Origin: Paraphysomonas bandaiensis
Lineage: Eukaryota; Protista; Chrysophyceae
Length of the DNA: 64,000 bases
Reading direction: 5' to 3'
NCBI GenBank assembly: GCA_965644295.1
Contig: CBFFRP010000066.1
Coordinates: forward strand, 248,001 to 312,000
Positions 24,870 through 54,200 of the stretch are shown in pieces. Both the position numbers and the translations under genes were made by a program. The notes under the pieces were generated by a model that saw nothing but the letters and a program-made list of their open reading frames with translations, did no database searches and had not been told where the DNA came from. Within the stretch, counting starts at the first letter, position 1; every line of letters begins with the position of its first letter.

Positions 24870-27435
24870 AAAGTGTTGGTGGCAAAGTTGGATAGTGAGT
24901 AACTGTAGGAACTGGCGCGTATGTTGGTCGGTAAGTTGGAGATGACGTAGGTGCTTTAGTAGGAATACTAGTAGGTAAAAATGTGGGAAACCTTGTAGGT
25001 AATATTGTAGGTTTGGATGATGGCACTGAGGTGGGATAAGAGCTGGGATCACTAGTGGGGATGTATGTGGGTTGCCCAGTCGGCTCCCCACTTGGCTGCC
25101 AACTCGGAACTGCGGTTGGCATAGTAGATGGTATACTAGAAGGTTGACTACTAGGCGAGGCACTTGGGAACGATGAAGGCTGCCCAGATGGGTTCTCAGA
25201 AGGCTGGCCACTAGGCTGTCCAGAAGGTTGGCCAGTGGGTACTCTTGTGGGTTCTCCTGAGGGTTTCCCAGAAGGTCGGCTAGTAGGCCCATCAGTAGGT
25301 TCGCCTGTAGGTTGGCCCGTGGGTTGCCATGTAGGTTCCCCTGAAGGTTGGCCGGAAGGCTCACCCGTGGGTTGTCCTGTAGGTTCCCCTGACGGCTGAC
25401 CAGACGGTTCACCTGTGGGATGGCCAGTAGGTTCCCCGGAAGGCTGAGCACTAGGCTGGCCTGTAGGTTGGCTGGAAGGTTCAGCTGTTGGTTGGCCAGT
25501 GGGCTCTCGGGAAGGCTGAGCACTAGGCTCGCCTGTAGGTTGTCCTGTAGGTTCCCCTGAAGGTTGGCCGGAAGGTTCCCCGGAAGGCTGCGCACTAGGT
25601 TGACTTGTAGGTTGGCTAGAAGGTTCAGCTGTGGGTTGGCCAGTGGGCTCTCGGGAAGGCTGAGCACTAGGTTCGCCTGTAGGTTGGCCCGTGGGTTGCC
25701 ATGTAGGTTCCCCTGAAGGTTGGCCGGAAGGCTCACCCGTGGGTTGTCCTGTAGGTTCCCCTGACGGCTGACCAGACGGTTCACCTGTGGGATGGCCAGT
25801 AGGTTCCCCGGAAGGCTGAGCACTAGGCTGGCCTGTAGGTTGGCTGGAAGGTTCAGCTGTTGGTTGGCCAGTGGGCTCTCGGGAAGGCTGAGCACTAGGC
25901 TCGCCTGTAGGTTGTCCTGTAGGTTCCCCTGAAGGTTGGCCGGAAGGTTCCCCGGAAGGCTGCGCACTAGGTTGACTTGTAGGTTGGCTAGAAGGTTCAG
26001 CTGTGGGTTGGCCAGTGGGCTCTCGGGAAGGCTGAGCACTAGGTTCGCCTGTAGGTTGGCCCGTGGGTTGCCCTGTAGGTTCCCCTGACGGCTGACCAGA
26101 CGGTTCACCTGTAGGATGGCCAGTGGGTTCTCCGGAAGGCTGAGCACTAGGTTCGCCTGTAGGTTGGCCCGTGGGTTGTCCTGTAGGTTCCCCTGAAGGT
26201 TGACCGGAAGGTTCACCAGTGGGTTGTCCTGTAGGTTCCCCGGAAGGCTGACCAGACGGTTCACCTGTGGGATGGCCAGTAGGTTCCCCGGAAGGCTGAG
26301 CACTAGGTTGGCCTGTAGGTTGGCTGGAAGGTTCAGCTGTTGGTTGGCCAGTAGGTTCTCCGGAAGGCTGAGCGCTAGGTTCGCCAGTCGGTTGGCCCGT
26401 GGGATGGCCAGTAGGCTCCCCTGTGGGTTGGCCAGTAGGTTCCCCGGAAGGCTGAGCACTAGGTTCGCCTGTAGGTTGGCCCGTGGGTTGTCCTGTAGGT
26501 TCCCCTGAAGGTTGGCCAGTGGGTTCTCCGGACGGCTGGCCGGAAGGTTCACCCGTGGGTTGTCCTGTAGGTTCCCCGGAGGGCTGACCAGACGGTTCAC
26601 CTGTAGGATGGCCAGTGGGTTCTCCGGAAGGCTGAGCACTAGGTTCGCCTGTAGGTTGGCCCGTGGGTTGTCCTGTAGGTTCCCCTGAAGGTTGGCCAGT
26701 GGGTTCTCCGGACGGCTGGCCGGAAGGTTCACCCGTGGGTTGTCCTGTAGGTTCCCCTGACGGCTGACCAGACGGTTCACCTGTAGGATGGCCAGTGGGT
26801 TCTCCGGAAGGCTGAGCACTAGGTTCGCCTGTAGGTTGGCCCGTGGGTTGTCCTGTAGGTTCCCCTGAAGGTTGCCCAGTAGGTTCTCCGGAAGGCTCAC
26901 CCGTGGGTTGTCCTGTAGGTTCCCCTGAAGGTTGACCGGAAGGTTCACCCGTGGGTTGTCCTGTAGGTTCCCCGGAGGGCTGACCAGACGGTTCACCTGT
27001 AGGATGGCCAGTGGGTTCTCCGGAAGGCTGAGCACTAGGTTCGCCTGTAGGTTGGCCCGTGGGTTGTCCTGTAGGTTCCCCTGAAGGTCGGCCGGAAGGT
27101 TCACCTGTGGGTTCCCCTGACGGCTGGGCACTAGGTTGGCTAGAAGGTTGCCCTGTCGGTTTTCCAGATGGTACTGCTGAAGGCTCGTTAGAAGGTTCAC
27201 CTGTAGGTTGTCCTGTAGGTTCCCCTGAAGGCTGACCAGACGGTTCATTAGTAGGTTGGCCAGATGGTTGTCCTGTTGGTTCACCAGATGGCTGTCCAGT
27301 AGGGATTCCAGATGGCTCACCTGTGGGTTGACATGACGGCTGTTCTGTAGGACCAGATGGTTGCGCACTAGGTTGTCCTGTTGGTTGACATGACGGTTGT
27401 CCAGAAGGGAAAGAAGTCGGTGCAGATGTGGGTAT
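24870..27435 (-). repeat. Expanded PT-type stalk repeats of gene 2 (~2.6 kb)
   Basis: About 200 tetrapeptide P-S/T-x-Q/E units with larger internal duplications. Confidence 0.92.
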
Positions 27436-27520
27436 CAAGCATTCATGGTAAGCGGCTTGTGTGAGGTAGAAGGTTGATAATTGAGTCATTGTGCATAGCT
27501 CGGAAGGGTACACTTGTGAA

Positions 27521-29392
27521 CATATTGTCCTCACCCCTTAGAATTCGTAATTTGGTTAGATTGGAAAAAGAGTCGGGGAGAGGACCCGATAAGAAATTGG
27601 AATATAGATAGAGATAAATAAGAGAAGTCAGCTGACCCAATGATGAAGGAAGAGGACCCGTTAAGAAATTGGAATTTAGATCGAGATAACTAATAGAAGT
27701 CAGCTGACCCAATGATGAGGGAAGAGGACCCGTTAAGGAATTGGAATATAGATAGAGATAACGAAGAGAAGCCAGCTGACCCAATGATGAAGGAAGAGGA
27801 CCCGTTAAGGAATTGGAATTTAGATCGAGATAACTAATAGAAGTCAGCTGACCCAATGATGAGGGAAGAGGACCCGATAAGAAATTGGAATATAGATAGA
27901 GATAACTAATAGAAGTCATCTGACCCAATGATGAGGGGAGAGGACCCGTTAAGAAATTGGAATATAGATAGAGATAACGAAGAGAAGTCAGCTGACCCAA
28001 TGATGCGGGGAGAGGACCCGTTAAGGAATTGGAATATAGATAGAGATAACGAAGAGAAGTCAGCTGACCCAATGATGCGGGGAGAGGACCCGTTAAGGAA
28101 TTGGAATATAGATAGAGATAACGAAGAGAAGCCAGCTGACCCAATGATGAAGGAAGAGGACCCGTTAAGAAATTGGAATATAGATAGAGATAACTAATAG
28201 AAGTCAGCTGACCCAATGATGAGGGGAGAGGACCCGATAAGAAATTGGAATATAGATAGAGATTACGAAGAGAAGTTAGCTGACCCAATGATGCGGGGAG
28301 AGGACCCGTTAAGGAATTGGAATATAGATAGAGATAACGAAGAGAAGCCAGCTGACCCAATGATGAAGGAAGAGTACCAGCTAAGTAATTGGAATATAGA
28401 CCGAGATAACTAAGAGAAATCATCTGACCCAATGATGTGGGAAGAGTACCTGTTAAGGAATTCCCATATAGTTGGAGAGCACGAAGAGAAGTCATCTGAC
28501 CCAATGATGTGGGGAGAGTACCGTTGAGAGAGTTGGAACCAATATCAAAATATGTCAATGCAGTCATACCACCGATAGAGGACGGGAAATAACCCGTTAT
28601 GGAGTTGCCATAAAGATGGAGAGCACGAAGAGAAGTCATCTGACCCAATGATGAGGGCAGTGTACCAATGAAAGAGTTGTAACCAATATTTAAAGATGTC
28701 AGTGTAGTCATATTACTGATAAAAGACGGGAGATAACCCGTTAAGGAATTCCCATATAGATGGAGATAACTAATAGAAGTCATCTGACCCAATGATGAGG
28801 GGAGAGTACCGATGAGAGAGTTGGAACCAATATCAAAATATGTCAATGCAGTCATATCACTAATAAAAGACGGGAGATAACCCGTTAAGGAATTCCCATA
28901 TAGACGGAGATAACTAATAGAAGTCATCTGACCCAATGATGAGGGGAGAGTACCGATGAGAGAGTTGGAACCAATATCCAAATATGTCAATGCAGTCATA
29001 TCACTGATAAAAGACGGGAGATAACCCGTTAAGGAATTCCCATATAGACGGAGATAACTAATAGAAGTCATCTGACCCAATGATGAGGGGAGAGTACCGA
29101 TGAGAGAGTTGGAACCAATATCCAAATATGCCAATGCAGTCATAGTACTGATAAAAGACGGAAGAGAACCCGTTAAGGAATTCCCATATAGACGGAGATA
29201 ACTAATAGAAGTCATCTGACCCAATGATGAGGGAAGAGGACCCATTAAGGAATTGGAATTTAGATCGAGATAACTAAGAGAAGTCATTTGACCCAGTGAT
29301 GAGGGCAGAGTACCACTGAGAGAGTTGTAACCAATACTCAAATATGTCAATGCAGTCATATCGCCGATAGAGGACGGGAGAGATCCTGATAT
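27521..29392 (-). repeat. LRR array of gene 2: 26 x 72 bp
   Basis: Start-to-RGE distance is 21 x 72 bp shorter than in gene 1; runs of near-identical YLYLYSN units. Confidence 0.93.
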
Positions 29393-29889
29393 CCCTCCAA
29401 AAAATAAGCTCACTCCGGTTATGTTCGATCCTGTGCAGGTGACTCCAGTGAAAGTGCACTTATTCCCCACATCCGCACAGGTCCACTCAGACCGTATGGA
29501 GGTAACATCAGTCGCCTGAATGAAGTCACACAGCGCTGCCTCTTGAGAGACAACTGAGGCAACTGTGAGTGTTACGATACGAGAGTGAAATAAACTGATA
29601 AGCAGACATACACAGCGAATGGATGGATTCATATGGATGTATATGTATATGTATATGAAAGCATGGAATAAAATATACGAGAGTTTATGTTATGGTGTTA
29701 CGCTATTGCTGTAGCTGTATGGATAAAGCGCGTTGTTGAACATCCTGGAGTACCAAAGACAAGTCGAAGTATGTTCTGGGGGGTTATAATGTTATCAACC
29801 AGACATTTATATATAAATATCAGGTGTTTTAGTATATTTTTGCTTGGAATATTGGATTTTGGCTATAAGAAAATCCGTTATTTTTTTAA

Positions 29890-30319: not shown

Positions 30320-30868
30320 TGTATGTATTGTATGTATGTATGTATGTATGTATGTATGTATGTATGTATGTATGTATGTATGTATGTATGTATGTATGTA
30401 TGTATGTATGTATGTATGTATGTATGTATGTATGTATGTATGTATGTATGTATGTATGTATGTATGTATGTATGTATGTATGTATGTATGTATGTATGTA
30501 TGTAGGTATGTATGTAGGTATGTATGTATGTATGTATGTATGTATGTATGTATGTATGTATGTATGTATGTATGTATGTATGTATGTATGTATGTATGTA
30601 TGTATGTATGTATGTATGTATGTATGTATGTATGTATGTATGTATGTATGTATGTATGTATGTATGTATGTATGTATGTATGTATGTATGTATGTATGTA
30701 TGTATGTATGTATGTATGTATGTATGTATGTATGTATGTATGTATGTATGTATGTATGTATGTATGTATGTATGTATGTATGTATGTATGTATGTATGTA
30801 TATCGGATATGGGTTTGTATGTATGTATGTAGGTAGGTAGGTAGGTATGTATGTATGTATGTATGTAT
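30320..30868. repeat. (TATG)n microsatellite, ~550 bp, with TAGG variants
   Basis: Directly visible; source of the spurious MYVC ORFs. Confidence 0.98.
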
Positions 30869-30979
30869 GGGTATATGGACAGCGGTGGTATGTATCTACA
30901 CCATTACTGTTAAGTGGTCTACCTCTCTAGGTCTCTTATCTCCTCTGCTCTCTCACCTCTCTCATATCTGATCATCTCG

Positions 30980-33555
30980 ATGAAGAAAGCCACTGAACGA
31001 GATAAACTTTTAGGTCCATATACCATATATATATATATATATCTGTATGTATATGTATGTATGTATCATCATATATTTATAGTACTGTATATATGTATAT
31101 AACACTGTGTATATATAACATATGTACATCTATAGGCCCTAGTAGTGGGGGACTAACCAAAAACCAACACTACATGTCTGCTTCCGCTTTCCTCACTGTA
31201 GCCGAAGAGATCAATCGACAAAGACAAACTACAGCCCATCTATCTCGTAGTGCATCTATAGGCATAGATATGACCCCCTCTGCACTCAACCCCATACGAG
31301 AGGTATCATACGTTATATATAGCTGTTATACATAGCTGTTATATATGGTTGTTATATGTATATGTTATATGTGTATATGTTATATAGCTGTTATATAATG
31401 CTGTTATATGTTATATATAGTTGTTGTATGTGTATATAGTGATATCCCCTCACGAACTGTCTCACTTGTTATACGTATGGTATATAGGTATTCATTTTGT
31501 TAAATGTATAATGTAGTTTTGAACCCCATACGGGAACCTCATACGTATAAAAACATCTTGCTATACCCTCATTTTTAATATAGGGACAAAGGAGGGCATT
31601 GTATGGGACATTGCCGTTTGTTTCTGCATTTGGAATGACCAAACGTGAGAATGAGATTCGGAAAGTCTTATCGTCAGTTAGTCACAAGTCACTCACTGAT
31701 CTTGCAAAGGAGTCTGAGGTATATACATATTATCACGTCATTTGGGGGGATTAGAACTTAATTTTGTATGTGTAGCATGCAGAAATGTTGGAGGAAGTTG
31801 ACGTCGATGAGGTATTACAATTATTTATTTTTGTCTTGAGTGTCTTCCTGTACGCCCGGTTGATTTATGTTTCTCATGGGATGCACTAGATTATTGTGAC
31901 CTTCCCACTGGTAATGGCAGTGTTAGTTGCTATTATTTCCCAGTTCCTTGTGGGATACAATACAGCGGTTATGAATTCACCGGAAGGGGTAGTTTTTCCG
32001 GGACACTCAACGGCAGAGTGGTCTTTTGCAGTCTCAGCTTTTGCCATAGGTGAGTACAATTGTATATCGTGGTGTATGGTAGTGACTATGAAAACCCTGG
32101 AATTTGTTACATCTGACTATAGGTGGTCCCCTGGGAGCAATTGCTGGGGGTCTTTTGGCCAACAAAAGAGGACGAAGGTGGTATTGTGTACTTTTAGCAA
32201 TTGTTTCTGAAGTTGTTGTAGAGGGGCTATGCTGGTAAACAGTTGGATATTCCTCTTCGGAGGCCTTATATTGACTCTGGCACCAAGTATTCTATGGATC
32301 ATACCCGCTAGACTTATTATCGGTTTCGCCTCCGGCTTGTCGTCTGTTGTGGTGCCCGTGTATTTAGGTACTTGTCGCGGAATTGTGTATTGTATAATAT
32401 GTTGCCATCATCTGTAATTTCCTGCCAGTAACCTGATTTTGATCGTGCGTGCAGGTGAAATTGCACCCCCTACGCTTCGTGGAACTCTTGGTACATGCAC
32501 TCAGTTCGCAATGGTGACAGGCATACTTGTCAGTGCTCTGATGGCTTTTCCTTTGGCAACTGCAACCCTATGGCGGTGGCTTTTCGCTGTGACGCCCATA
32601 TTAGCTGGCTCTCAGCTTTTGGTTTCTCCTTTCCTCTTGGAATCTCCTAGATGGCTCTTGAATCATGATGAAAATTCGAGTGTCGCTAGGTACTACTTAT
32701 TCTGTATAATTGTCAGATTAATGTATTTACTACAGGGTAGTGATAAAGGCTCTACGTGGATTCCGTTCTGACGAAGAAATTGAGAACGAAGTCCAAAATT
32801 TCATGTATGCATCGTCGAAACACAAAACTTCCCGTTCTAGTGCCCACTCCTCTGGGGCCATGTGGGACCTATTGCACGCTAAGGATGTGCGCATACTGGT
32901 TGTCTCTGTCATTGTGCTCCAAATGGCTCAACAACTATGCGGTATAAACGCTGTGTTTTACTATTCCTCGATGTTTTTTGATGGCGTTCTAAGCAACCCT
33001 CTACAAGGTACTGCCCTAGTATCGTTTATTAATGTTGTAGCTACATACGCTGCTCTTAAGTTAATGGACGACACCAATCGCCGCACTCTCCTTCTTTGGT
33101 CCGCTGGTGGGATGTTGATTTCAACAATATTTATTATAGCAGCCTTACTGCACGTAGTTCCAAATATTGTCGCCTTGGTCGCAGTGATGGCTTTTGTTTC
33201 ATTCTTCGAGATCGGCCTGGGTCCTATTCCTTGGTTAATTGTTGCAGAGATGTTTGATGCAAAGTATGTCGCCACTGCTATGTCAATGGCATGCATTGTG
33301 AACTGGGCCTGTAATTTTCTTGTCGGCTTGTTATTTCCTTTCATGCAGCAATCATTAGGGGCATATAGTTTTGGACCGTTTGGTGTGGTTCTTGTTGCAA
33401 CATATTTCTTTACCTATCTACAGTTGCCTGAAACCCACGGTAGATCGGTGGAGGAAATTCAACGACTGGTAGGTTCTGGAGATGAAGAAGTGAGACGAGC
33501 GATTGAGGTGATCGAAGGAATAGACGATTATGACTTTGGGGATGATGCCCTGTAA
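30980..33555 (+). CDS. MFS sugar porter (GLUT/SLC2-like hexose transporter), about 9 exons
   Basis: Motifs [72 protein letters not shown] introns link the pieces in frame (e.g. exons 30980-31013, 31136-31302, 31584-31718); the first donor (GTCCAT) is weak so the 5' end is less sure. Confidence 0.9.
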
Positions 33556-34141
33556 CGAGCAAGTATTTCAGTTGGATTGATCATTGCCACTTGTGTTTTG
33601 GTGTCTTGCGGGGATGTGTGTACTGGAGGGTTCTAGTTAATTTATAGCACTACCCAGATATAATATAACTAATGATATTATTTATGTTTTACGAAAGCCA
33701 ATACCTGTGACTGTAGAAACCAAAACCAGACAATTACAGACACATTTCATTGACATGATACATAGCAATAACAGGTTTTTAATATTGTCGTTAATTTAAA
33801 CTTGTCGCGATTGTCGATATATTGCGAAAATATTCCTGGTGCAATACTTTCGTGTTGAGAGTTCGACTGTATATCAAAATTTAAGTAGCGTACCCCTTAA
33901 ATGCAAGAGGCATTTCTTACAGTGTGTAGTATGCAGGTTGATCGTTTCTGTCATGAACACTAAAGATATTTTGAACATGTTATAATTTTCCTATCAATGC
34001 AATAATCGTGAGTTATATCAGCTTGCAATCCTTAAGTCTTATCAAAATCGAACATTACAAAATATGAGTACTTCAGTTTGGAATATTTCGTTGTGTAAGT
34101 TTCGGGATTTTATATTTATATATAGATTATATCACTACATA

Positions 34142-36253
34142 TTACACAGAGTTATGAGCAAGGATAGCAACATCTTGGTTCTGGCTTTCCTTCTTTCCGA
34201 AGCACGTAAATCTGTAAACTACAGTAGCAATCAGAATAACAAATACGACACATGCTATCACAATAGAGGCAATGGCTCCTCCAGACAGTTCATCATCATC
34301 ATTGCCATTTCCACCGCTGTAAGGTGTACTAGTAGCAGAGTTATTCAGCAGGACAAGGGCAACGCCATTAGACCAGCCGAACCCGACCTGAGGGGTATAT
34401 TCTCCCCCCCCGCCGCCAACGCCCACCTCAAAGGCATTGTACTTCTCATACATATACCCTGAAGTGTTGTAGGCTTCATAGTTCGTGGCAAGCCATTTAG
34501 AGGAGATGTCATTCTGTATACGCCATGACATGTGAAGTACAGAAGGTAACAGTCAAACTTACCGCCAACTGATCTGCTTCTGTCAACACCAGCCTCCTTA
34601 AGCCTTCTATTATGATCAGCACGAGAGGTGGCCATGCGTTGGGCGAGTCCCACTGTTGACCTGAATTAGTGGATGTAGTCAGTATACCGGCATCCTGTAT
34701 AAGACCGCTGGAAGAGAGAGATGCTAAAACGCATTCTCGAGATGACAATGATGTATCGGTAAGTCCACCCCACATGGGAATCCATGACGATATCGTGACA
34801 CCACCATCCCCATAGTTGGTTATAGATGATCCGGAAGTAATATTGAAATCATTCCACCTGTATTTTTAAGAACACCATATAGAAAACGTAATTAACGAGG
34901 CCAGCACAGGATAGTAGATGTCACACAATAACGAACATTGATAAAGGTCATAAGATTCCGGTAATTGAAGTATATTTCAAAGTAAATACCAACAAATCAT
35001 TCAGATATAAATTGCAATATATTCGCATTAATCCCGAAATACGAGACATGCTGTACAACGCTAACAGGGTGAACCTACACACATGCCACCTACCGGCATT
35101 GCTCTGCACTCCACAGAACTTCTTCTATGGCCAGCTTTCGTGCTTCAGCTGCGGCGCCATATACCTCCCCATCTTCACCAACAGCCAATGCAATTCGTTG
35201 CAAATTGAGCTCTAGTCGATACATATATGTGTTCAGGTCAGTGGGAATTATATGAGTGGTATCAATAGCTGACAAATTAAACGTGGGCGGGGAGGTAGGG
35301 TGAAGCCATCTGGAAGAGAAGTCCCAACCCGTTTCCGCTCCTGTGCGTATATTTTGGTAAAGCGCCTGCTGATATGGAGTTGATTCATTCCAAGATGAAG
35401 TTGCTGGGTCTACACCAGCAGTCTCAATATCCTCCAGGTAGGACTCCGGACGGGGTGCAGTACTATTACTGTGATATACATTTAACACATGATCTTTCCC
35501 ATTCATATTAACAACAACAGTGTGTCCCTTTAAAGGAGACATCCACCAACTATATTCTTTTTGAAGAAGTGGATAAGAATATGTTAATAAATCAGTTGTA
35601 TTACTTGAAGACCATCCCCAATAATCAGCTAATGAGATAATCATCTCTGATAATAGAGGAGGTTGACTACGATCAAGATAATATATACGTCCCCCATTAG
35701 GGACATATCCAAAATTATTAATATCATCTAGTAGGTTCCATATAACATACTGAGCAGTTTGTGGCATATCACAGACAAGAAGACCTTTAACAATCCATAA
35801 TGAATCCCAGTAATAACTTTCATGGAATCTTCCACCAGGGATAATCATGGGATACCTTCTAGGGACAAAACTAGATCGTTCAGGATATAATAATACAGAT
35901 TGATTAACTTGTTTTGATATAGTAGACCATAATTGATTTAAATCAGATGCCCATATACGATATGGTGGATATTGTATAGTGTCAATGAATTGTGGTGTAT
36001 TTGATAGATCGTTCGGGTAATATGAGAGTATATCACTACCTGATGCATAGAAATATGTGGATAGAAAGGTAGATAATTGATTAGGATCAGAAGTGTTAGG
36101 TATGGATCTATAAGCGGCATGGATTACAGAAGGATCGTATTTCATTGGCTGATCGACGAAGACTTTACTGTCATTGTAAATAAGTGATGTTTGAATGGAA
36201 TGAAGAATAGGACCGGTGCAGTATACACTGCATGCGAGAGTGATTGCTTCCAT
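34142..36253 (-). CDS. Alpha,alpha-trehalase (GH37) with C-terminal transmembrane anchor; exons ~36253-35094, 34857-34563, 34513-34142
   Basis: GH37 motifs DSKVFVD, PGGRFHESYYWDS, PNGGRIYYLDRSQPP, PRPESY, AETGWDFSSRW, QQWDSPNAWPP, MYEKY, GGGGGEYTPQVGFGWSNG; introns 34858-35093 and 34514-34562 keep frame; TM GAIASIVIACVVFVILIATVVY. True start uncertain (a hydrophobic in-frame stretch extends to a GTG at 36307). Confidence 0.9.
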
Positions 36254-36316
36254 GATGGTTAAGTATATGAATATATGGAGAAATGATACACTAACATATA
36301 CAAACACAGCTCACAA

Positions 36317-36773: not shown

Positions 36774-39700
36774 ATGAATCCATCCATTCGCTGTGTATGT
36801 CTGCTTATCAGTTTATTTCACTCTCGTATCGTAACGCTCACAGTTGCCTCAGTTGTCTCTCAAGAGGCAGCGCTGTGTGACTTCATTCAGGCGACTGATG
36901 TTACCTCCATACGGTCTGAGTGGACCTGTGCGGATGTGGGGAATAAGTGCACTTTCACTGGAGTCACTTGTTCAGGATCGCACATTACCTCAGTGGACTT
37001 ATATGATGATGGGATATCAGGATCTCTCCCGCCATCATTCGGTAATATGACCTCACTGACATATTTGGATATTGGTTACAACTCTCTCATCGGTACTCTG
37101 CCCTCATCACTGGGCCAGATGACTTATCTTAGTTATCTCTATCTACGTGACAATTCCATATCGGGTCCTCTCCCGTCATATATCGGTAATATGACTGCAT
37201 TGACATCTTTAAATATTGGTTTCAACTCTCTCATCGGTACCCTCCCCTCGTCATTGGGTCAACTGACTTCTCTTAGTTATCTCTATCTATATGACAATTC
37301 CTTGACGGGTCCTCTCCCGTCATCTATCGGTGATATGACTGCATTGACATATTTGCTTATTGGTTACAACTCCCTCAACGGTGCTCTGCCATCATCATTG
37401 GGTCAGCTGACTTCTCTGAGGTTTCTCTATCTCTCTGTCAATTCCATAACGGGTCCTCTCCCGTCATATATCGGTGACATGACTGCATTGACAGTTTTGG
37501 ATATTGGTGGCAACTCTCTCACCGGTACTCTGCCATCATCATTGGGTCAGCTGACTTCTCTTCGTGATCTCCGTTTACATTACAATTCCATAACGGGCCC
37601 TCTCCACTCATATATCGGTGATATGACTACATTGACACATTTGCATATTGGTGGCAACTCTCTCAGCGGTACTTTGCCATCATCATTGGGTCAGCTGACT
37701 TCTCTTTATTATCTCCATCTATATGGCAATTCCTTAACGGGTCCTCTCCTGTCATCTATCGGTGATATGACTGCATTGACGTATTTGCATATTGGTGGCA
37801 ACTCTCTCAATGGTACTTTGCCATCATCATTGGGTCAGCTTACTTCTCTTAGTTATCTCTATCTCTCTGACAATTCCATAACGGGTTCTCTTCCTTCATC
37901 AATTGGTGATATGACTGCAATGGCATATTTGCTTATTGGTGACAACTCTCTCAGTGGTACTCTGCCCTCATCATTGGGTCAGCTGTCTTCTCTTGTTGAG
38001 CTCTATTTCTATGACAATTCCTTGGCGGGTTTTCTCCCCGAATCTTTTTCCAGTCTAACCAAATTACAACTTCTAAGGGGTGAAGGTAATGTGTTCACAG
38101 GTGTCTACCCTTCCGATCTATGCACAATAACTACGTTAACAACCTTCTACCTTACACAAAACACTTACCACGAATGCTTGAGACCCACATCCGCACCGAC
38201 TCCTTTCCCTTCAGGGCAACCGACAATACAGCCATCTGTTCAACCTACAGGACAGCCTTCTGGGACCCCTACAGGACAACCATCTGGGACCCCTACAGGA
38301 CAACCATCTGGGATCCCTACTGGCCAACCATCTGGTAAACCTACAGGACAGCCTTCTGGTGAGCCAACAGGACAGCCATCATGTCCGCCATCTGGGACCC
38401 CTACAGGACAACCATCTGGGATCCCTACTGGCCAACCATCTGGTAAACCTACAGGACAGCCTTCTGGTGAGCCAACAGGACAGCCATCATGTCCGCCATC
38501 TGGGACCCCTACAGGACAACCATCTGGGATCCCTACTGGCCAACCATCTGGTAAACCTACAGGACAGCCTTCTGGTGGGCCAACAGGACAGCCATCATGT
38601 CCGCCATCTGGGACCCCTACAGGACAACCATCTGGGACCCCTACCAGACAGCCATCAGGTGAACCAACAGAACAACCATCTCGGATCCCCACTGGACAGC
38701 CATCATGTCAACCCACAGGTGAGCCATCTGGGATCCCTACTGGCCAACCATCTGGTAAACCTACAGGACAACCATCTGGGATCCCTACAGGACAACCATC
38801 AGGTCAACCCTCAGGACAGCCATCAGGTGAACCTACAGAACAACCCTCAGGTCAGCCATCTGGGACCCCTACAGGACAACCATCTGGGATCCCTACTGGC
38901 CAACCATCTGGTAAACCTACAGGACAGCCGTCTGGTGAGCCAACAGGACAGCCATCATGTCCGCCATCTGGTGAGCCCTCAGGACCACCATCTGGGATCC
39001 CTACTCGCCAGCCATCTGGTGAACCGACAGGACAACCATCTGGTGAACCTACGGGACAGCCATCTGTTCTACCTACAGGACAACCTTATCGGATCCCGAC
39101 AACACAGCCATCTGTTCAACCAAGAGGTCAGCCATCTGGTCAACCCTCAGGACAACCATCTGGGATCCCAACAGCACAGCCATCAAGTCAGCCATCTGTT
39201 CAACCTACAGGACAGCTATCTGTTCAACCTACAGGGCAACCATCTGGTCAACCCTCAGGACAACCATCTGGAATCCCAACAGCACCGCCGTCAAGTCAGC
39301 CATCTGTTCAGCCTACAGGACAGCCATCTGTACAACCAAAAGGGCATCCATCTGTTCAACCTACAGGACAGCTATCTGGGATCCCAACAGCACCACCATC
39401 AAGTCAGCCATCTGTTCAGCCTACAGGACAGCCATCTGGACAACCAAAAGGGCATCCATCTGTTCAACCTACAGGACAGCTATCTGGGATCCCAACAGGA
39501 CCGCCATCAAGTCAGTCATCTGTTCGACCTACAGGACAGCCGTCATATCCACCTACAGGACAACCATCTGGGATTCCAACAGGTCAGCCGTCATGTCAAC
39601 CTACAGTAGAGGCACCTGGGTTATCTACTGGGCAGCCAGCGTGTCAACCTACAGGACAGCCATCTGGGCAACAACATTCGACTTTTCCATCGACGCATGC

Positions 39701-42700
39701 TCCTTCAGTTGCACATTTACCTGAGATGTTACGTATGGTCTGGACCGCGTATCGAGATTACATTACACTTTCAATTCAGCTCTCAAATAGCGGTTATGTC
39801 TATTGCGCAAGCTTTGAATCTATGGTAATCGTCGACTCTGTAAGTTCTGTAATTTCTGCAAACAATTTTGACTATGTGAACGGCGTTTCTGTCAACGCCT
39901 CAATCTCGATTACATCTCTGACACCGTCCACGAATTACACACTTTATTGTGTCACGCAAAACAATGACTTGTTAGCTACCTCGTATGAAGAAATGCTCTC
40001 GAATGCAGTCGTTTGGAAAACTCTATGTTGTAAGAGCATATATGTGGATTTGAATATGCTTGTGCTGCAAGAATATAGTGTGGGCTGGAATATGGTTGCA
40101 GTTACCCTTTCGGCAGCTCCGTCATCTGACAGTGATGTGTGGATATCTGCTGAGGTGTCAAATAGCAGTGGTTCGTACACTGTATCCCCCTTTCTGGATG
40201 ACACTGTGACTGTTACGCATTCCTCATGGTCGAAGACACATTTCTTCACTGTCGCCAACTGTGCGCCGGGACTGTACACACTACAGGTGACGATGATGGA
40301 TTTTTCAGTGCAGCGGGAGTATGATGTGGTCTTCCGAAGTGGCCAGTCGTTCACTGTAGAGCCCTCTGCAGTAGAACCCAGCACCCCGCGTTTAACGTCA
40401 GCACAGTTCTCGAAGAGTGGTGAGTCCGCTGTCCTGAAATTTGATTCACCTACGGACAAGGCGCAATATTCCTCATATTTCAAGTGCTCTCGTCTCCTGA
40501 ATGTAGCTGGGGCCTCATCGTCAGACTGTCTTTGGACCTCGGCCACCACACTTACTGTGTATTTCAAAGGGCCTCTTCTTCCTGAAGTGGGTGATAGTGT
40601 GGTGCTGCTACCGGGTCAACTGCGAGCTCAATGCACCTCCACATCATCAGAGTGTACAGACTGGGCTACTGTGAACAGAACAGAGATGATTTTAGCTGCC
40701 CCCTACAACCCCATCTCACCAACGCTCGTTGTGACATACCCAAAGGTCTCCAGTCTCTGCGACAGACCTGTAATCGATATTACTGCCTCCTCTGGTTCTG
40801 GTGGTCGACCATGGAAGCACTTTAACATCACTGTGACCAGTGCTAGCAATACTGTTCATACAGTTCAGAAATGGCTTACAGAGAATTACGTGATTAGCCC
40901 ACCGCCTGCAATACCAGCCCAACTATTTCAAGGTGGTTATAGGTACATCTTTGAGCTATGGCTGTGCAATTTTCTCGGTGAATGCAGCTCTGCCATAGCT
41001 ATCATAAAAACAGTAAATGATATTCTGCCGTATGTTTCTATGGTGGGACAACTCTCTCGACAGATATTCACTTACACTCCTCTGGCACTGCAGTCGAATG
41101 CTTTTCTAAATGAATGCGATGGATCTGTATCGTATTCCAACTTAATATATGACTGGAAAATATTCGAGGGTGAAGTGGAGCACTCTGAGTTAGTGTCGTT
41201 GTCGAGTGACCCGAGAAAATTTAAGTTACCACCTTATTCTTTGAACGTAAGTTCTGTTTACGAAGTAAAGTTATCTGTGATAAGCTCTCTGTCGGGTCTG
41301 TCGTCGTCAGCAGTTGTATACGTGTCCGTAGTTCAGTCCAATATTGTGGCAATCATCGAGGGAGGATCACAGCAATCATTGCGAATCGGTGGGAGCGTGT
41401 TATTGGATGCATCTGGCAGTTATGATAAAAACATTCCACCCGAATTACGCCCTCCAGCTGAGAGCAGTGGGTTTGAATTCCGTTGGACTTGCATGCAGTT
41501 GTTTCCAGCTCTCCTTCTGCGGTGTGATGATTTGAATATACATTCGAATAGTATTACAACTCCACATTTACTACATATATTTACTACGAATAAGACAAAG
41601 GAGCACTCGGAGTATTCGATAAGTGTGGAAGTGCTTAGTGTTGCTGACGGCAGGCAAGCAGAGAGCTCAGTGGTTGTACGAGTGACTGAGGCATTGGCTC
41701 CGATTGTGACTATAAGGAGGAGCGAAGCAGCGAGTGGTGTCAACCCTTCGTCTTCCATGGTTTTGCTGGGAACTGTGCAATTAGATGTCGCCCAATCAGC
41801 ATTTTGGACCATCAACGAGCCTTCTGTTGCTCTCTCTTCTATCACATCTACGGCGACGTATGTATCACTAGCGAAAGGGCTACACTCCATCAATTTGGTG
41901 GTTAGTGCCGGCTCTATTCCTGGTCGGTCGGTTCCCTATGTGTTTTCACTTACCTGTGGCTCGTCCACAGCATCATTGACAGTGATTTTTAATACTCCTC
42001 CTCAGCCTGGTCTACTTGCAGTGTTCCCTCCCTCAGGTATAGCGTGGGATACAGTCTTTACACTCATTGCGGAGTCTTGGACTGATGAAGACTTGCCATT
42101 GTCCTATGCAATGGGTTATGTGGAGAATGACTACTATCCGATTGTGAGAAGTCGGTTGGAGACGTCTTATGTCAGCTCCACATTTCCACCTGGGGACAGT
42201 AAGAATGGATACACATTGTTGTGTTATGTTCGTGTGCTGGATAGTTTGGATGTAGGTTCTCTGTTGCAGGCGTCTGTTGTGGTTCGTTCCAATACATCCC
42301 TCTCGGCAACATTAGCAAGCGAGAAGTTTCGATTGGAACTAGAATCGAGTGGAAACAATATTGAGTTGACGAAGCAAATTCTCTCATTGTCTAGTTCTTA
42401 TCTGAACACCAAGAACTGCTCCTCAGCACCCAACTGTACCACTTTGAACCGTCACGAGTGTTTTAGTGTTGATCATACATGTGGATCATGCTTGACTGGG
42501 TATGTGGGAGAAGAGGGTGCATCTAATCATAGTTGTGTACCGGAAAGCGATTTGTTAACACCTTCTCCAGGTGTGGTTTGTGGTACTGACTATGACTGCA
42601 GTGTATGGGAGTACTGTAAGGATTCGGAGTCACCCTCCGTTTGTGATTATCGTCGGCAAACATGTACCGGCAACTGCTCGCATCGAGGCACCTGCATACT

Positions 42701-45700
42701 TCAGGACAGTGACAGCGGAGCTGCTGTGTCCGAGTGTATATTGATTGACTCTTCATGTGAGGCGAAGTGTCTGTGTGATAAAGGATTCAGTGGCTTGTTT
42801 TGTGAGTATACAGCTGAGGAGGCGAGAGTACGCACTAATATGAGAGAAGCCAATCTCAAGGAGTTAGATGGTGTCACTAGAGTGGATGATCCAACTGTGG
42901 AGTCGATTTTGGAGTGGCAACAAATTCTAGTTGCACTTACAACACAACCGAGTGAACTATCTGAAGTGGGGGCAGAGCATGGTCTCAATATTGCTGATGT
43001 GATTTTAAGTAATGCTACACTGCAAACGGTGGACACATATGAGGCGTACAGTGACACGCTGACAGCAGTAGATAGCATTGCCACTGTGTCAATGAATATT
43101 TTGTTATCCTCATTGACCTCGTCCAATATCACTCGTCACCGCAGTCTCCTTTTCAACGAGAGCTCATTCATCGCCTCCCGAGTTGCGTCCGCGCTGGACA
43201 CTTATGGGTCAGGTGTAAGACGATCTCTGATTGAGGGCCAACGCGGGAATCAGATTTTACGAAAGTCATTTCAACAAATTACAGAAGTTTTTTCCTTTTC
43301 AGTTAATAGTGAAGATATTTCAATGGCAGTACCACAGTCATTTGCAAAGACGTCGGCTGGATTACTGCCCTCGTCTTTCCAATTTCTTAGAAATAGTACT
43401 CGGCACCCCTCGCAGAGTTTGAAGGTTTCATTGAGTAGTATTCGGTCGAAGCTTTATGACAATGAGAATTACAATTCGGATGTGTTGCAAATGGCTATTG
43501 ATGGCTCGATGTACTCCAACGATTCTTTCAAGATAATTATACAAAATAATTATCCTATCTACTACGGCCGAGTACACGCCAACAATACCACATTTAACGT
43601 GACTTGTGATCGTGATGTGTACACCACTCACGTAGTACCCTGTCACCCGTCAGCTGTGAACGTCACTTGTAATGGCACTGCCGCAAATGTACGGCTACGT
43701 TGCCCGGATATTTTCTCTGCACCTCATTGCCGAGTCTTGTCTACCAGAGGGAACTTCAACTGCACAGTTGACTCCTATACTTCGTGGAACACCACATGCT
43801 TGTGTCAGCTCACTTCATCAGGATATCACTTCGGAGGTAATGACCTGTCATCGTATGATACAAACCCTTCTCCCTCTCAGCGACGCGTGGACGAGACAGG
43901 GCAAGAGCAGGCAATTCTGCGAGAGTCGGGGTATGTGGAGCTCGTGAGCACATCAGAGTACGTTGCTGGCGACTTTACTGCAACCGTTGTTCTGGCTCAG
44001 GAGTTCGATTCACCTGAGGACTTGCAAGCAGTACTTTTGGTTGTATCGTTGTTCGGAACAATTTGGGGCATGGGATTCCTTGCAATGTGTTATATGTTTG
44101 CAACGTCAGCGTATTTTTCCAAAAGTGAGAAATTAAAACAGTGTGCGACGACCCCGAGTCTTGACCTCAATAGTGCTTCCCAAAATGCAATTACCGCGGA
44201 TTCTATGAAAATGCGACTTCATTCATATGTAAAGGAGGTTTTTCCGGCAGTGTACAACGCAGAATCGCCGTGGAGTCGATTGTGGAGAGAGCTGAAGAGC
44301 CATCATCGTTACATAGCTTTAGTTCTCTCGAAAGACTACACGAATACAGTGAACCACAAAATTCGAGTGTTGTTACACCTGTTAACAACACTTTCCATGC
44401 TGATGTTTTTCCTGGCGTTGTTGTATGACTTTGAGGTAATTGCATTAATTATTATCATCCAACAATACCTATAATATATTATATTGTTTTTCGTCTTGCT
44501 AATGACGTTCATATAGTATCCAGAAGACAATGGAAAATGTGAGGCTCATACCACTGCCTCACAGTGCGCAACTGAGAAGTCGATGCTAGATTCATCCCAG
44601 AGAGTGTGTCAGTGGGTTGAAGATGACGACACGATTGGGGGGTACTCGTGTGTATTTGTTAGCCCTGAGGTTTCTCTGAAGGTACCTAAACTCCCTTTTC
44701 CATCTTTGCATTGGTCTTTACATCTCGTCTGTATGTGTTCATTAGGCTACCCTGATTGCCTCTGTTATATGTTCCATCTTCAGCATGTTCGGAAATGCAA
44801 TTGTCGACTTTATATTCGACATTCTAGCTGCTCCCACTGCATGTTGCTCTAGGGAAAATGCTGCTGAGCAAATAAATGGTCAGATCCAACGGCGTGTGTC
44901 TCAATTTGGCAAACGAGTGTCAGCCATAACTACAAATTTATCTGATCAATTTAGGAGTAGTGTGGGGAGGAAGAGAAAAACGTCGTCTTTTATAACGATT
45001 GAATCAACACGTCATCTGCCATATTCTTGTATTGCTGCCCAGCAGTTGGCGTTATCTTCGTTTGGCAGTATCGTGGCAGAAGTAAATCCATCGTTACAGT
45101 CCATTGAACGTCGTTCCAGTCGTAGTCAGCGCTTAAGCAGAAATACGGATGCATCCCACCCACATTCGAGTAGTTTCCAGTCCTATTACGGCATCTGTCC
45201 CGTAAGCCAACGGTCTGAGGGAGTGGATAATGTGGCAGCAATTCCGTCTACTATCCTGTCCATCTCAACGGATGATTTATATGCAGACCTATGTAGCGAT
45301 ATTGTGGAGCAAATGAGATACCTGAGAACCACTAGACAAAAGGATGCATTTATGATGGCCTGGTGGTATGTATAATGTTATGTTGTTCTATATTTTGTTG
45401 CTTTTAATGTGTTTCTTGCAGCTTGGGGAATAATGATCAATTCAAGCCAGAGTATGCGAGTATTATTGAGAAAAGACTGAAGGAACACCTTGCTTTTGTT
45501 CAGAAGGAAGTGGCTCTCAAGCGGAATAAATTGAATCAAATCGAAGACATATATATTGGTCTGGAGCTGCTCCACATGTTTGTGCTGGATGTCCTCGGTA
45601 GAGGTAAAAAGTGTTCATACGTTGCGCATTATGCGATATTGCAATCTTCACCACAATAAACGTACTTACCTACTTGGTGTATGTAGCTTCACCGGCAGCC

Positions 45701-46987
45701 AAAATATTTGAGACGAAATCAGAGGAAGAGTGAGTTGACTATAATACACTAATGAGCCATTGCTGATATCTCATATTTGCTGTGTTGTGTTTTTGCAGAT
45801 TTCGCCACACCTACGTTGTTTCAAAGTTTGTAAAAGGCATAATGTGGACTTTGGTTGTGCTGTTGAATCTCTGCTTTATTTTTTACTCCATGTTACGAGG
45901 TCTACAAAGAGGACTCGAGTGGCAGATGATGTTTCTTTTTGCATGCATTCTGCAATTTCTATTCGAGATTTTGCTGTATGAGTCGTCTGAAGTCGCCATA
46001 ATTCATTTTGTAATTCCAAGTTTAGTCCGATACGAAGTTATGACTGCTCAAACTGCACTCTACAACGCAATTGAAAGTATCAGCAATATGTCAGAAGAAA
46101 CGAACGATCTGATACTTGACACGCCTCAGTATTTGTTTGTATCCGTAAATGTTGCCAAATTTTTCCCTCATCAATTGGAGAGTGCAATTGTACGGTCCTA
46201 TCACAGCCTTTATCCGGGTGCAGTGGCTAAGAATTGGAAAGACAGAAGTGAATTTTACTGTAGAAGAGGTGCTGTGGTTCCTTCCGGTCGAACTTATACA
46301 AGACGTTTCTCTGTGATAGCTCTGTTATCTCTCTTGGTTCAGCAACTCGGCGCAGTGAGCAGCACTTGGCAGCGCATGATCATTCATCTTCTTCAGCCAC
46401 TCTTTGCTGTATCTCTGATCATGATGTGGCAATATATGTGGTACCATCCCATATATTTCATATTTCTGCTGGTACTTGCAGTGTATGTCGGATATCGCTA
46501 TCTCTCCTCGTGGAAAAATCAGGCTGAAGAGCGGATTTCAAATAAAGTCGGCCAGTGCCCAGCAATAGTGTCGCCCGATTCCTCTGCTTCTTGTGTTCCT
46601 GGAGAGGAGGGAGCGAATCATCTGAATACTGGCCCGGAAGAGGGACACATTCCCCATCACCTCTCCAGCAGTGACCCTACTATCCATCAGCAGCGACACA
46701 TGAACGATTTTCCCTCCATTGTAGAAGTAGGGCCCAACGCCACCATTGTCCCACTTCTACCAGCAACTGCACTTGATCCCATTGTTGACACAGATACGGA
46801 AGGTGCTGCTGCTGTTGCAAATACTTCATACGGCGATTCTAGTAATTTTCGGCCTGCTGAGAAAACCAGTGTCACACATAACACCGCACCCGATGCTTCC
46901 ATTGCTATGAGTAATGTTGCACCACTGCTAGTTACGGATTTCTCTTCTGATAGTGAGCTGGAATGTCTGGCATTCAAAGAAGTGTAA
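36774..46987 (+). CDS. Receptor gene 3 (body B): LRR / PT stalk / REJ-like / EGF / GPS-like / multi-TM protein, ~3286 aa; exons 36774-44435, 44517-44681, 44746-45365, 45422-45603, 45687-45729, 45799-46987
   Basis: Five GT-AG introns (81, 64, 56, 83, 69 bp) join the listed ORFs in frame (9861 nt). 15 LRRs; DASGSYD; NTPPQPGLLAVFPPSG...FTLIAESWTDEDLPLSY; exon 2 YPEDNGKCE...C..EKS...C.W aligns with DPDDGSCE...C..EKS...CYW of gene 1. Confidence 0.88.
37014..38093 (+). repeat. LRR array of gene 3: 15 x 72 bp, alternating IGDMTAL / LGQLTSL types
   Basis: Counted from the translation. Confidence 0.93.
38183..39710 (+). repeat. PT-type stalk repeats of gene 3
   Basis: PTGQPSG tetrapeptide repeats with 120-bp higher-order units. 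Confidence 0.9.
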
Positions 46988-48429: not shown

Positions 48430-48643
48430 AAAAGTGGAGGTTTTCTGTAAAAAAGCCTACATTCGTCCACTGTAACGAGAGTATCCACCATATTAACGAC
48501 AAAAGAAACTATAGGTTTATATAAAAGTGGAGGTTTTCTGTAAAAAAGCCTACATTCGTCCACTGTAACGAGAGTATCCACCATATTAACCACAAAAGAA
48601 ACTATAGGTTTATATAAAAGTGGAGGTTTTCTGTAAAAAAGCC
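48430..48643. repeat. 93-bp tandem repeat, ~2.3 copies
   Basis: AAAAGTGGAGGTTTTCTGTAAAAAAGCC starts at 48430, 48523 and 48616 with near-identical intervening sequence. Confidence 0.92.
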
Positions 48644-51207: not shown

Positions 51208-51294
51208 ATGAATCCATCCATTCGCTGTGTATGTCTGCTTATCAGTTTATTTAACTCTCGTATCGTAACACTCACAGTTGCCTCAGTTGTCTCT

Positions 51295-54200
51295 CAAGAG
51301 GCAGCGCTGTGTGACTTCATTCAGGCGACTGATGTTACCTCCATATGGTCTGAGTGGACCTGTGCGGATGTGGGGAATAAGTGCAGTTTCACTGGAGTCA
51401 CTTGTTCAGGATCGAACATAACCAGAGTGGACTTATATGATGGTGGGATATCAGGATCTCTCCCGCCATCATTCGGTAATATGACCTCACTGACATATTT
51501 GAATATTGGTGGCAACTCTCTCACCGGTACTTTGCCCTCATCACTGGGTCAGCTGACTTCTCTTAGTTATCTCTATCTATATTCCAATTCCTTAACAGGT
51601 ACTCTCCCCTCATCATTGGGTCAGATGACTTATCTTGGTGTTCTCGCTCTATATTACAATTCCTTGACGGGTCCTCTCCCCTCATCATTGAGTCAGATAA
51701 CTTCTATTCGTTATCTCCATCTATATCGAAATTCCATAACGGGTCCTCTCCCCTCATCTATCGGTGATATGACTGCATTGACATATTTGAATATTGGTGA
51801 CAACTCTCTCATCGGTACTCTCCCCTCATCATTGGGTCAGATGACTTCTCTTGTTAGTCTCTATCTATATGGCAATGCCATTTCGGGTCCTGTCCCCGAC
51901 TCTTTTTCCAGTCTCACCAAATTACAACTTCTAAGGGGTGAGGACAATATGTTCACAGGTGTCTACCCCTACGAACTGTGCACAATGACTCAATTAACAA
52001 CATTCTACCTCACACAAACCAGTTACCATGAGTGCTTGAGACCCACATCTGCACCGACTTCATTCCCTTCAGTGCAACCGACAATTAACCTGGAAGAGTC
52101 AGCGCTGTGTGACTTTATTCAGGCGACTGATGTTACCTCCATACGGTCTGAGTGGACCTGTGCGGATGTGGGGAATAAGTGCAGTTTCAGTGGAGTCACT
52201 TGTTCAGGATCGCACATTACCTCAGTGGACTTATCTGATGATGGGATATCAGGATCTCTCCCCTCATCTATCGGTGATATGACTGCATTGACATCTTTGA
52301 GTATTGGTTCCAACTCTCTCAACGGTAGTCTGCCCTCATCATTGGGTCAGCTGACTTCTCTTAGAGTTCTCGCCCTACATTACAATTCCTTAACGGGTCA
52401 TCTCCCTTCATCTATCGTTGATATGACTGCATTGACATATTTGAGTATTGGTTACAACTCTCTCAGCGGTACACTGCCCTCGTCATTGGGTCAACTGACT
52501 TCTCTTCGTGCTCTCCATCTATATTACAATTCCTTAACGGGTCCTCTCCTGTCATCTATCGGTGATATGACTGCATTGACATATTTGCATATTGGATCCA
52601 ACTCTCTCAGCGGTACGCTGCCCTTATCATTGTGTCAGCTGACTTCTCTTCGTTATCTCGGTCTACATGTCAATTCCATAACGTATACTCTCCCAACCTC
52701 TATCGGTGATATGACCGCACTGACACATTTGGATATTCGCTCCAACTCTCTGACAGGTACTCTTCCCTCATCATTGGGTCAGCTGACCTCTCTTGTTCAT
52801 CTCAGTCTACATGACAATTCCTTAACGGGCCCTCTCCACTCATCCATTGGTGATATGACAGCATTGACAAATTTGCATATTAGTTCCAACTCTCTCTACG
52901 GTACTCTTCCCTCATCATTGGGTCAGCTGACTTCTCTTCGTTATCTCCATCTATATGGCAATTCCTTAGCGGGTCCTCTCCCGTCGTCAATCGGTGATAT
53001 GACTGCATTGACATATTTGAATATTGGTTCCAACTTTTTCAACGGCACTCTCCCGTCATCATTGGGTCAGCTGACTTCTCTTAGTTATATCTATCTATAT
53101 TACAATTTCATAACAGGTCCCCTCCCCTCATCATTGGGTCAGATGACTTCTCTTGTTGAGCTCTATCTACATGACAATTCCTTAACGGGTTTTCTCCCTG
53201 ACTCTTTTTCCAGTCTAACCAAATTACAACTTCTGAGTGGTGAGGGCAATATGTTTACCCGTGTCTACCCTTCCGATCTATGCACAATGACTCAATTAAC
53301 AACATTCTTTCTTACACAAAACACTTACCATGAATGCTTGAGGCCCACATCCGCACCGACTTCTTTCCCTTCAGGGCAACCGACAATTAACCTGGAAGAG
53401 TCAGCGCTGTGTGACTTTATTCAGGCGACTGATGTTACCTCCAAGCGGACTGAATGGACTTGTGGGAATGTGGGTAATAAATGCAATTTCAGTGGAGTCA
53501 CCTGTTCAGGGTCGCACATTACCTCAGTGGACTTATATGATGATGGGATATCAGGATCTCTCCCCTCATCTATCGGTGATATGACTTCACTTGTTGATCT
53601 CCGTCTACATTCCAATTCCTTAACAGGATCTATCCCGCCCTCTATCGGTGATATGACTGCATTGACACTTTTGAGTATTCGCTCCAACTCTTTCATCGGT
53701 ACTCTGCCCTCATCATTGGGTCGGCTGACTTCTCTTAGTTTTCTCGGCCTACATTACAATTCCTTGACGGGTCCTCTCCCCCAATCATTGGGTCAGATGA
53801 CTTCTCTTACTTATCTCGGCTTACATTTCAATTCCATAACGGGTCCTCTCCTGTCATCTATCGGTGATATGACTGCACTGGTATATTTGGTTTTTGAATC
53901 CAACTCTCTCAACGGTACTCTGCCATCATCATTAGGTCAATTGACTTCCCTTCGTCATCTCCATCTATTTGGTAATTCCATAGCGGGTCATCTCCCCTCA
54001 TCTATCGGTGATATGACTGCATTGACACAATTGAATATTGGTGGCAACTCTTTCATCGGTACTCTGCCCTCATCATTGGGTCGGCTGACTTCTCTTAGTT
54101 ATCTCCATGTACATTACAATTCCTTGACGGGCCCTCTGCCCCCATCATTGGGTCAGATGACTTCTCTTACTTATCTCGGTCTACATTTCAATTCCATAAC

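Follow-up and report, generated by a model that had tools for sequence, protein, structure and literature searches.

The described systems closest to the locus reported here are the HNWD genes of Podospora and related fungal NLR genes. In the accounts of their repeats given in PMC1805685 and PMC4986451, near-identical repeats are swapped both within and between paralogues, a few codons of the binding face are under diversifying selection, repeat number is variable and pseudogenes occur. A second system is formed by the type I LRR exons of the ROCO genes of Ectocarpus, a stramenopile with plant-type LRRs of 24 amino acids and 72 nucleotides, in which the genes are clustered and undergo birth and death, as far as the treatment of this family in PMC3341825 goes. 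REJ/polycystin-1-like receptors, in which REJ is followed by ~6-7 membrane segments, include Esi0130_0068 of Ectocarpus, described in the relevant part of PMC4700764 as a candidate recognition receptor under positive selection. The concave strand of LRRs is established as their ligand face (also discussed in PMC3341825). DGRs, as outlined in PMC7826257, alter the adenines of a template, giving NNY from AAY codons.

Here we describe the LRR heads of a predicted surface-receptor family encoded in a 64-kb window (by which we mean the whole stretch of 64,000 nucleotides that was analysed). We propose that the framework of these heads owes its uniformity to unequal crossing-over and gene conversion, and that diversifying selection retains ordinary nonsynonymous point mutations at the codons of the predicted ligand-facing strand. 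We put the probability of this reading at roughly 0.8.

Four receptor genes in the window

The window is eukaryotic and holds four paralogous giant genes. Each encodes a signal-like peptide, a Cys-containing cap, plant-type 24-residue LRRs, a PT stalk, REJ and ~6-7 hydrophobic segments, except that gene 4 leaves the window upstream of its REJ domain. The genes flank a sugar transporter and a trehalase: at 31900-36310, between the two receptor gene pairs, the transporter (MFS, plus strand) lies tail to tail with the trehalase, which is on the minus strand and has a hydrophobic segment at its C-terminus. The features are listed below.

1551-13978, minus strand: gene 1, one module with 46 LRR units and many exact higher-order duplications, PT stalk, REJ and ~7 hydrophobic segments (translation, regex, Pfam)
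17201-29632, minus strand: gene 2, paralogue of gene 1 with 25 LRR units; the reading frame shifts where the LRR module ends, near 27500
36774-44435, plus strand: gene 3, first exon, encoding a signal-like N-terminus, a single capped LRR module, the PT stalk, the REJ body and the first membrane segments (open frame, translation, Pfam LRR/PT/REJ, hydrophobic segments)
36870-37028, plus strand: gene 3, N-cap with Cys and first irregular repeat of the LRR module (each of the 12 modules in the window has this cap at its head)
37029-38036, plus strand: gene 3, 14 alternating type A and type B 72-bp LRR units (regex units, pN/pS, site model, AlphaFold strand)
38190-39690, plus strand, limits approximate: gene 3, Pro/Thr/Gly/Gln/Ser (PT) stalk (PF04886, E 4e-86; tandem repeats)
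41136-42308, plus strand: gene 3, REJ domain (PF02010, E 5e-42, residues 1455-1845)
44436-44516, plus strand: gene 3, GT...AG intron (boundaries in the sequence; two contigs of run X6 join 44435 to the exon at 44517)
44517-46987, plus strand, exact splicing approximate: gene 3, later exons with more membrane segments (open frames, translation, hydrophobic segments)
51208-64000, plus strand: gene 4, nine LRR modules, each with a cap (91 units found in all), and PT stalk, leaving the window
56386-56506, plus strand: gene 4, insertion of 95 bp flanked by direct repeats of 13 bp (56386-56398, 56494-56506), whose in-frame stops interrupt the gene

Pfam gives two REJ matches (PF02010, E 5e-42 and 6e-43) and an LRRNT_2 match in gene 4 (E 1.6e-4). 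No Pfam match was found for NACHT/NB-ARC in genes 1, 3 and the first part of 4, nor for Roc-COR GTPase, and no kinase was found. PLAT and the polycystin channel domain gave no Pfam match either, and the ~6-7 hydrophobic segments stand against 11 helices in polycystin-1-like receptors. GPS had no Pfam match; the first helix follows a CxC motif at a distance of 55-80 residues, and two distant relatives carry PF01825.

The bodies are closely related (gene 2 to gene 1, 97.3% identity; gene 4 to gene 3, 96.2%). The frameshift of gene 2 (~27500, minus strand) is a 2-base loss relative to gene 1 and may reflect either a pseudogene or an assembly error. The 95-bp insertion in gene 4 is single copy in the window and missing in the duplicate module at 59884, and is therefore recent. 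No frame-restoring GT...AG pair that would make it an intron was seen in its sequence. It resembles a small mobile-element insertion. An assembly artefact is unlikely, as two stretches of the gene 3 array equal contigs of run X1 with 0 differences (X1 may be the source sample).

Repetition is also found at other scales. The nine tandem capped modules of gene 4 (51208-61270) include whole-module duplications, and the same junction from module end to cap occurs in contigs of other runs. In gene 1 (10900-13400, minus strand) blocks of 3-4 units are duplicated with an aberrant type A unit, which is present in ~10 near-unchanged copies and has Gly replaced by Asp or Ser at conserved turn positions. 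Gene 2 is preceded by a TGTA microsatellite of 136 copies (30320-30869), and gene 4 by a near-perfect tandem repeat of 93 bp (48430-48643).

The REJ body has 64 homologues at 23-35% identity. The named ones are from Epipyxis and, via a cluster member, Paraphysomonas, both Chrysophyceae, and the runs with this DNA include marine metagenomes, from which we infer that the host is a marine chrysophyte-like protist. Related PT-REJ bodies in other organisms carry NHL, FG-GAP or Gly-rich heads (L010:21-3647, L034:2-2518, P0008, P0010). At least three LRR units were found in 0 of the 64 body homologues (searched at lengths of 1411-4491, many of them 5'-truncated). When metagenomes were scanned with the REJ body, 40 loci came up, 11 of them with at least 2 kb upstream, and 0/40 had LRR units; a scan with the LRR module gave 24 pattern matches and 0 relatives. 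A literature search, judged mainly from listings, yielded no description of LRR-PT-REJ receptors in chrysophytes, and LRR and REJ are mentioned 0 times in the main text of a preprint on chrysophytes (10.64898/2026.10.27.762293), whose supplements may list them.

Variation within the 72-bp unit

A regex search finds 176 in-frame 72-bp LRR units in the window, 46, 25, 14 and 91 in genes 1 to 4, respectively. An earlier note on this DNA had estimated ~190, a figure reached only if irregular cap repeats are counted; the span 37014-38093, to which it referred, does hold the 14 units of gene 3. The units belong to two types that mostly alternate (69 type A, 107 type B), and 140 of them have distinct DNA sequences (57 of type A and 83 of type B). 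They show the consensus LxxLxLxxNxLxGxLP with a 24-residue period and match Pfam LRR_1/LRR_8. Numbering codons from the Pro codon, the x of xxLxLxxN are codons 11, 12, 14, 16 and 17 (for example A14 or B14, by type). An AlphaFold model (mean pLDDT 88.6) has a beta-strand at unit positions 12-16, and the predicted LRR fold matches plant receptor ectodomains by sequence and structure (TDR, TMq 0.85; FLS2). According to the model, the x positions sit on the repeating beta-strand of the concave face.

Variation is concentrated at these codons. The mean entropy of bases 1-2 of x codons is 1.08 (A) and 1.33 (B) bits compared with 0.35 and 0.33 bits in the framework, a three- to fourfold difference (Mann-Whitney p 1.4e-5 and 3.5e-6). 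The earlier claim that variation is limited to these bases goes too far, since they account for 24% of the total entropy in type A and 36% in type B, and further variable codons lie on the second strand (21 in type A, 23 in type B; omega about 2.5 at both). Codon 11 is almost constantly Thr in type A. Nor is the framework nearly fixed, as had been stated: its pN is 0.11-0.12 and its pS 0.18-0.27, and of two framework sequences quoted as typical, the 30-mer has 0 exact copies within 37014-38093 (16 in the window) and the 24-mer has 1 (17 in the window). Among units, nearest-neighbour framework identity is 0.94 with a pS of 0.17-0.23.

The NNT/NNC look of the x codons is real. A pyrimidine ends 217/228 of them in type A and 387/415 in type B, compared with 67% and 58% of framework codons, and the third base is set per column, T at 11-16 and C at 17. 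Third-base variability is not lower at x codons than in the framework (p 0.61 and 0.50). A stop occurs in 0/176 units. The residues are dominated by Tyr, Ser, Gly, Asp, His and Arg, in keeping with the richness in Tyr, His, Ser, Asp and Arg reported before; 107/228 (A) and 224/415 (B) are encodable only by NNY codons. Lys, Glu, Gln, Met and Trp together make up 3%, compared with ~20% at the same positions in 120 other LRR proteins.

Some giant LRR proteins elsewhere (P0120, P0091, P0097, P0074; at least one labelled bacterial) also have a nearest-neighbour framework identity of ~0.9 and diverse x residues. This regime may be widespread.

Probable selection on the variable codons

Among distinct units the pairwise pN/pS at x codons is 1.51 (1.26-1.78) in type A and 3.07 (2.67-3.54) in type B, where the bootstrap intervals treat related units as independent, the estimate itself is tree-independent and the five-codon set of type A includes the constant A11. 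The framework has values of 0.49 and 0.68, respectively. Gene 3 alone gives 1.57 (A) and 2.52 (B) at x codons; for type A in genes 1 and 2 the intervals span 1. A codon likelihood model gives site omegas of 2.5-3.4 with p < 0.002 at A14, A17, A21, B11, B12, B14, B16, B17 and B23; it uses a FastTree tree of units that are paralogous and recombining, by which p-values can be inflated. B7 and B21 are marginal in this model. Selection on silent sites would reduce pS and raise omega.

These values have to be weighed against relaxed constraint, by which exposed x residues would drift neutrally and the framework would be purified and homogenised. The fairly high framework omega of 0.5-0.7 fits such a reading, as do A12 (p 0.059) and A16 (p 0.73), where an omega above 1 fails to reach significance when the silent rate is shared, and the fact that two of the four genes are broken. 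Neutral drift should, however, lead to an omega of ~1, far from the type B value of 3.07, and the helix-side positions 2, 3, 5 and 6, which are equally exposed, have an omega of 1 or less. Moreover, the x-codon differences of type B plateau (~6/15 bases) already between units just 3 framework bases apart. We regard relaxed constraint as the sole cause as unlikely. Diversifying selection on the beta-strand face, which had been suggested before, is supported by the pN/pS values and site omegas together with the position of the strand.

Exchange between repeats and change of repeat number

Exchange takes place at a scale smaller than the repeat. Four-gamete failures affect 63% of 349 and 76% of 253 site pairs, and linkage falls with distance inside the 72-bp unit (p 0.01 and 0.001). 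Three units are A/B hybrids:

53563-53634, plus strand: hybrid unit whose first half is of type A and whose strand half is of type B
55951-56022 and 59461-59532: reverse hybrid units

A fourth hybrid call (29090-29161) was dropped as a misclassification. The evidence for exchange between genes is a single 72-bp unit that is identical in genes 3 and 4. Repeat and module number change fast: the heads differ despite 96-97% identical bodies, with 46 and 25 units in genes 1 and 2, 14 and 91 units in genes 3 and 4, and one to nine modules.

The family seems to extend beyond the window. Per run, 598-4596 contigs align to gene 3, and in run X1 the summed depth over the gene body is ~900-2400 compared with 23-34 for single matching contigs; although this ratio is not a copy number, it hints at tens of paralogues. 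Contig joints in other runs skip 72 bases, step back 360 bases or lead from a module end to a new cap, and such joints may come from alleles or from paralogues. In run X6, guessed to be RNA, the two contigs joined across the intron at 44436-44516 suggest that at least one family member is transcribed.

In lampreys, VLRs are assembled somatically from LRRs, with an incomplete germline gene and flanking LRR cassettes that are assembled in each cell. For Ectocarpus, somatic reshuffling of LRR units has reportedly been proposed. A programmed or unusually frequent mitotic reshuffling of units among family members, acting on top of selection, would yield clone-specific receptors here as well. The hybrid units, the decay of linkage within 72 bp, the contig joints and the large number of contigs on gene 3 would be expected under such a process. 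Against it, neither free cassettes nor an incomplete germline gene were found in the window, single X1 contigs of 167 and 212 bases equal the gene 3 array (X1 is possibly the source sample, and contigs lose rare variants), and the joints are explicable simply by paralogues. We therefore consider reshuffling of this kind improbable. It is hardly less speculative that a chrysophyte might possess an antibody-like repertoire, in which the LRR heads of tens of polycystin-like surface receptors would be reshuffled between members during clonal growth, so that lineages would carry distinct Tyr/Ser/Asp/His-rich surfaces for the recognition of prey or viruses.

Origin of the codon pattern

The diversifying selection on homogenised repeats that we favour would draw on ordinary point mutations, and the allele networks of the x codons agree with this. 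All of their 89 links (89/89) are single-base; nonsynonymous changes number 33, 33 and 11 at positions 1, 2 and 3, and 12 links are silent. Single-step networks discriminate weakly, as they are expected when many alleles fill a small codon space. Position 3 offers only 5-10% of nonsynonymous opportunities and takes 11/77 of the amino-acid changes; it is hence not under-represented and not protected.

A point-mutation model was set up that starts at the commonest codon of each column, takes its silent depth from framework four-fold sites and has no residue preference, with a star tree and omega fitted per column. It gives a pyrimidine-ending fraction of 0.925-0.957 (observed 0.952 in A, 0.933 in B), a Lys/Glu/Gln/Met/Trp fraction of 0.017-0.030 (observed 0.035 and 0.039) and a third-base retention of 0.85-0.92 (observed 0.92 and 0.90). 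By this model, the NNT/NNC pattern is a by-product of the ancestral third base and the genetic code, and a special mutator is unneeded: the ancestral codons have T or C as their third base, silent change at this base is limited to a low background rate, and third-base changes yield few new residues or a stop. The scarcity of Lys, Glu, Gln, Met and Trp, which the model reproduces, likewise follows from the short mutational distance from Tyr, Ser, Gly and Asp ancestors.

A targeted mutational process, which the earlier note had considered as well, would write the NNT/NNC codons directly, either by DGR-like adenine mutagenesis of AAY codons or by a deaminase. Stop-free NNY codons are a DGR signature in the description of these elements in PMC7826257, A is frequent as second base of codons 12, 14 and 16, and the shortage of five residues relative to other LRRs could be read in the same way. 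Yet silent bases among the variable codons are almost invariant: A is kept in 81/83 (B3), 49/50 (A9) and, within the variable strand, 65/74 units (B15, a Leu codon flanked by two variable codons), C in 81/81 (B13) and 54/55 (B19), and T in 71/72 (B10). Among first bases A does not dominate, being present in just 1-14 of 83 units at B12, B14, B16 and B17, and the AAY Asn codon of the unit is invariant in its amino acid. C>T accounts for 2/77 changes at x codons, without the C:G to T:A bias of deaminase or RIP type. Across the family, the differences seen in four runs are symmetric and rich in transitions (in X1 A>G 89, G>A 82, C>T 75, T>C 67), and recent duplicates are mostly the same at x codons (37/45 B and 27/41 A pairs with identical frameworks). 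In the 64-kb window, which the search for template, reverse transcriptase and mutator covered, nhmmer found no non-coding copy of the unit that could serve as template, no YxDD motif occurs in 216 frames, and a Pfam scan of 63 frames found no RT. The likeness to a DGR is thus superficial, consisting of the stop-free NNY output (PMC7826257). With silent A and C kept, no adenine specificity, neither template nor RT in the window and a point-mutation model that fits, a DGR, a deaminase or regional hypermutation is so improbable that we reject it.

Discussion

Our preferred reading, diversifying selection on LRR heads that are homogenised by crossing-over and conversion, builds on the receptor architecture, the omega above 1 at x codons, the recombination within units and the fast change of repeat and module number. 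The many repeat copies would raise the mutation supply, and conversion would homogenise the framework and at the same time spread and recombine variant codons. Selection might then keep new residues on the predicted binding face, and reshuffling could combine variant codons into new binding surfaces. The PT stalk would present the head away from the cell, and binding might be signalled via the REJ-membrane body. Candidate ligands are fast-changing foreign surfaces, and our preferred guess is bacterial prey, viruses or parasites. Mates seem less likely, although mate recognition might be possible given the REJ precedents presented in PMC4700764. The selection profile of the unit is that of this one window, in which genes 2 and 4 are interrupted.

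To our knowledge, the molecular recognition of prey, viruses or mates by phagotrophic protists is largely an open question. The locus provides candidate recognition receptors, with a chrysophyte-type PT-REJ-membrane body and exchangeable heads (NHL, FG-GAP, Gly-rich and LRR), and at particular residues the LRR version shows the kind of selection signature known from non-self receptors. For genome scans it holds a caution, as NNT/NNC columns can mimic a DGR without a mutator; in contrast to a DGR, this locus has no adenine specificity, and no template or reverse transcriptase in the window.

Compared with known systems, the regime is one of concerted evolution plus diversifying selection of HNWD type. 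The genes are not members of the HNWD family, as they have no NACHT/NB-ARC. HNWD and other fungal NLRs are intracellular NACHT/NB-ARC proteins with WD, ANK or TPR repeats, and no LRR was found in fungi in that work (PMC1805685, PMC4986451). The present repeats are LRRs and belong to a predicted extracellular protein of stalk, REJ and membrane segments, without any sign of a RIP-like C-to-T bias. The receptor genes are also outside the Ectocarpus ROCO family, having no Roc-COR and no exon per repeat. In the ROCO genes, as presented in PMC3341825, each LRR has one exon, shuffled via introns, and is attached to a cytoplasmic Roc-COR GTPase, whereas the arrays here are intron-free in continuous frames, with alternating A and B units, up to nine capped modules and recombination inside the unit. 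The positively selected sites 15, 17, 19 and 20 of Ectocarpus (numbering of PMC3341825) nevertheless correspond to positions 12, 14, 16 and 17 here. Plant LRR receptors (FLS2, TDR, MIK2, ERL1) share the repeat class and, by the structure model, the fold, but framework identity is 0.94 here and ~0.55-0.6 in those with a single ectodomain (P0138, P0182). In Esi0130_0068 the selected sites lie in the REJ region, according to the part of PMC4700764 on this gene, while the present genes have theirs in a large LRR head carried by a PT stalk. The strategy of concerted evolution plus selection is thereby extended from intracellular receptors of fungi and brown algae to a predicted extracellular receptor of a unicellular organism.
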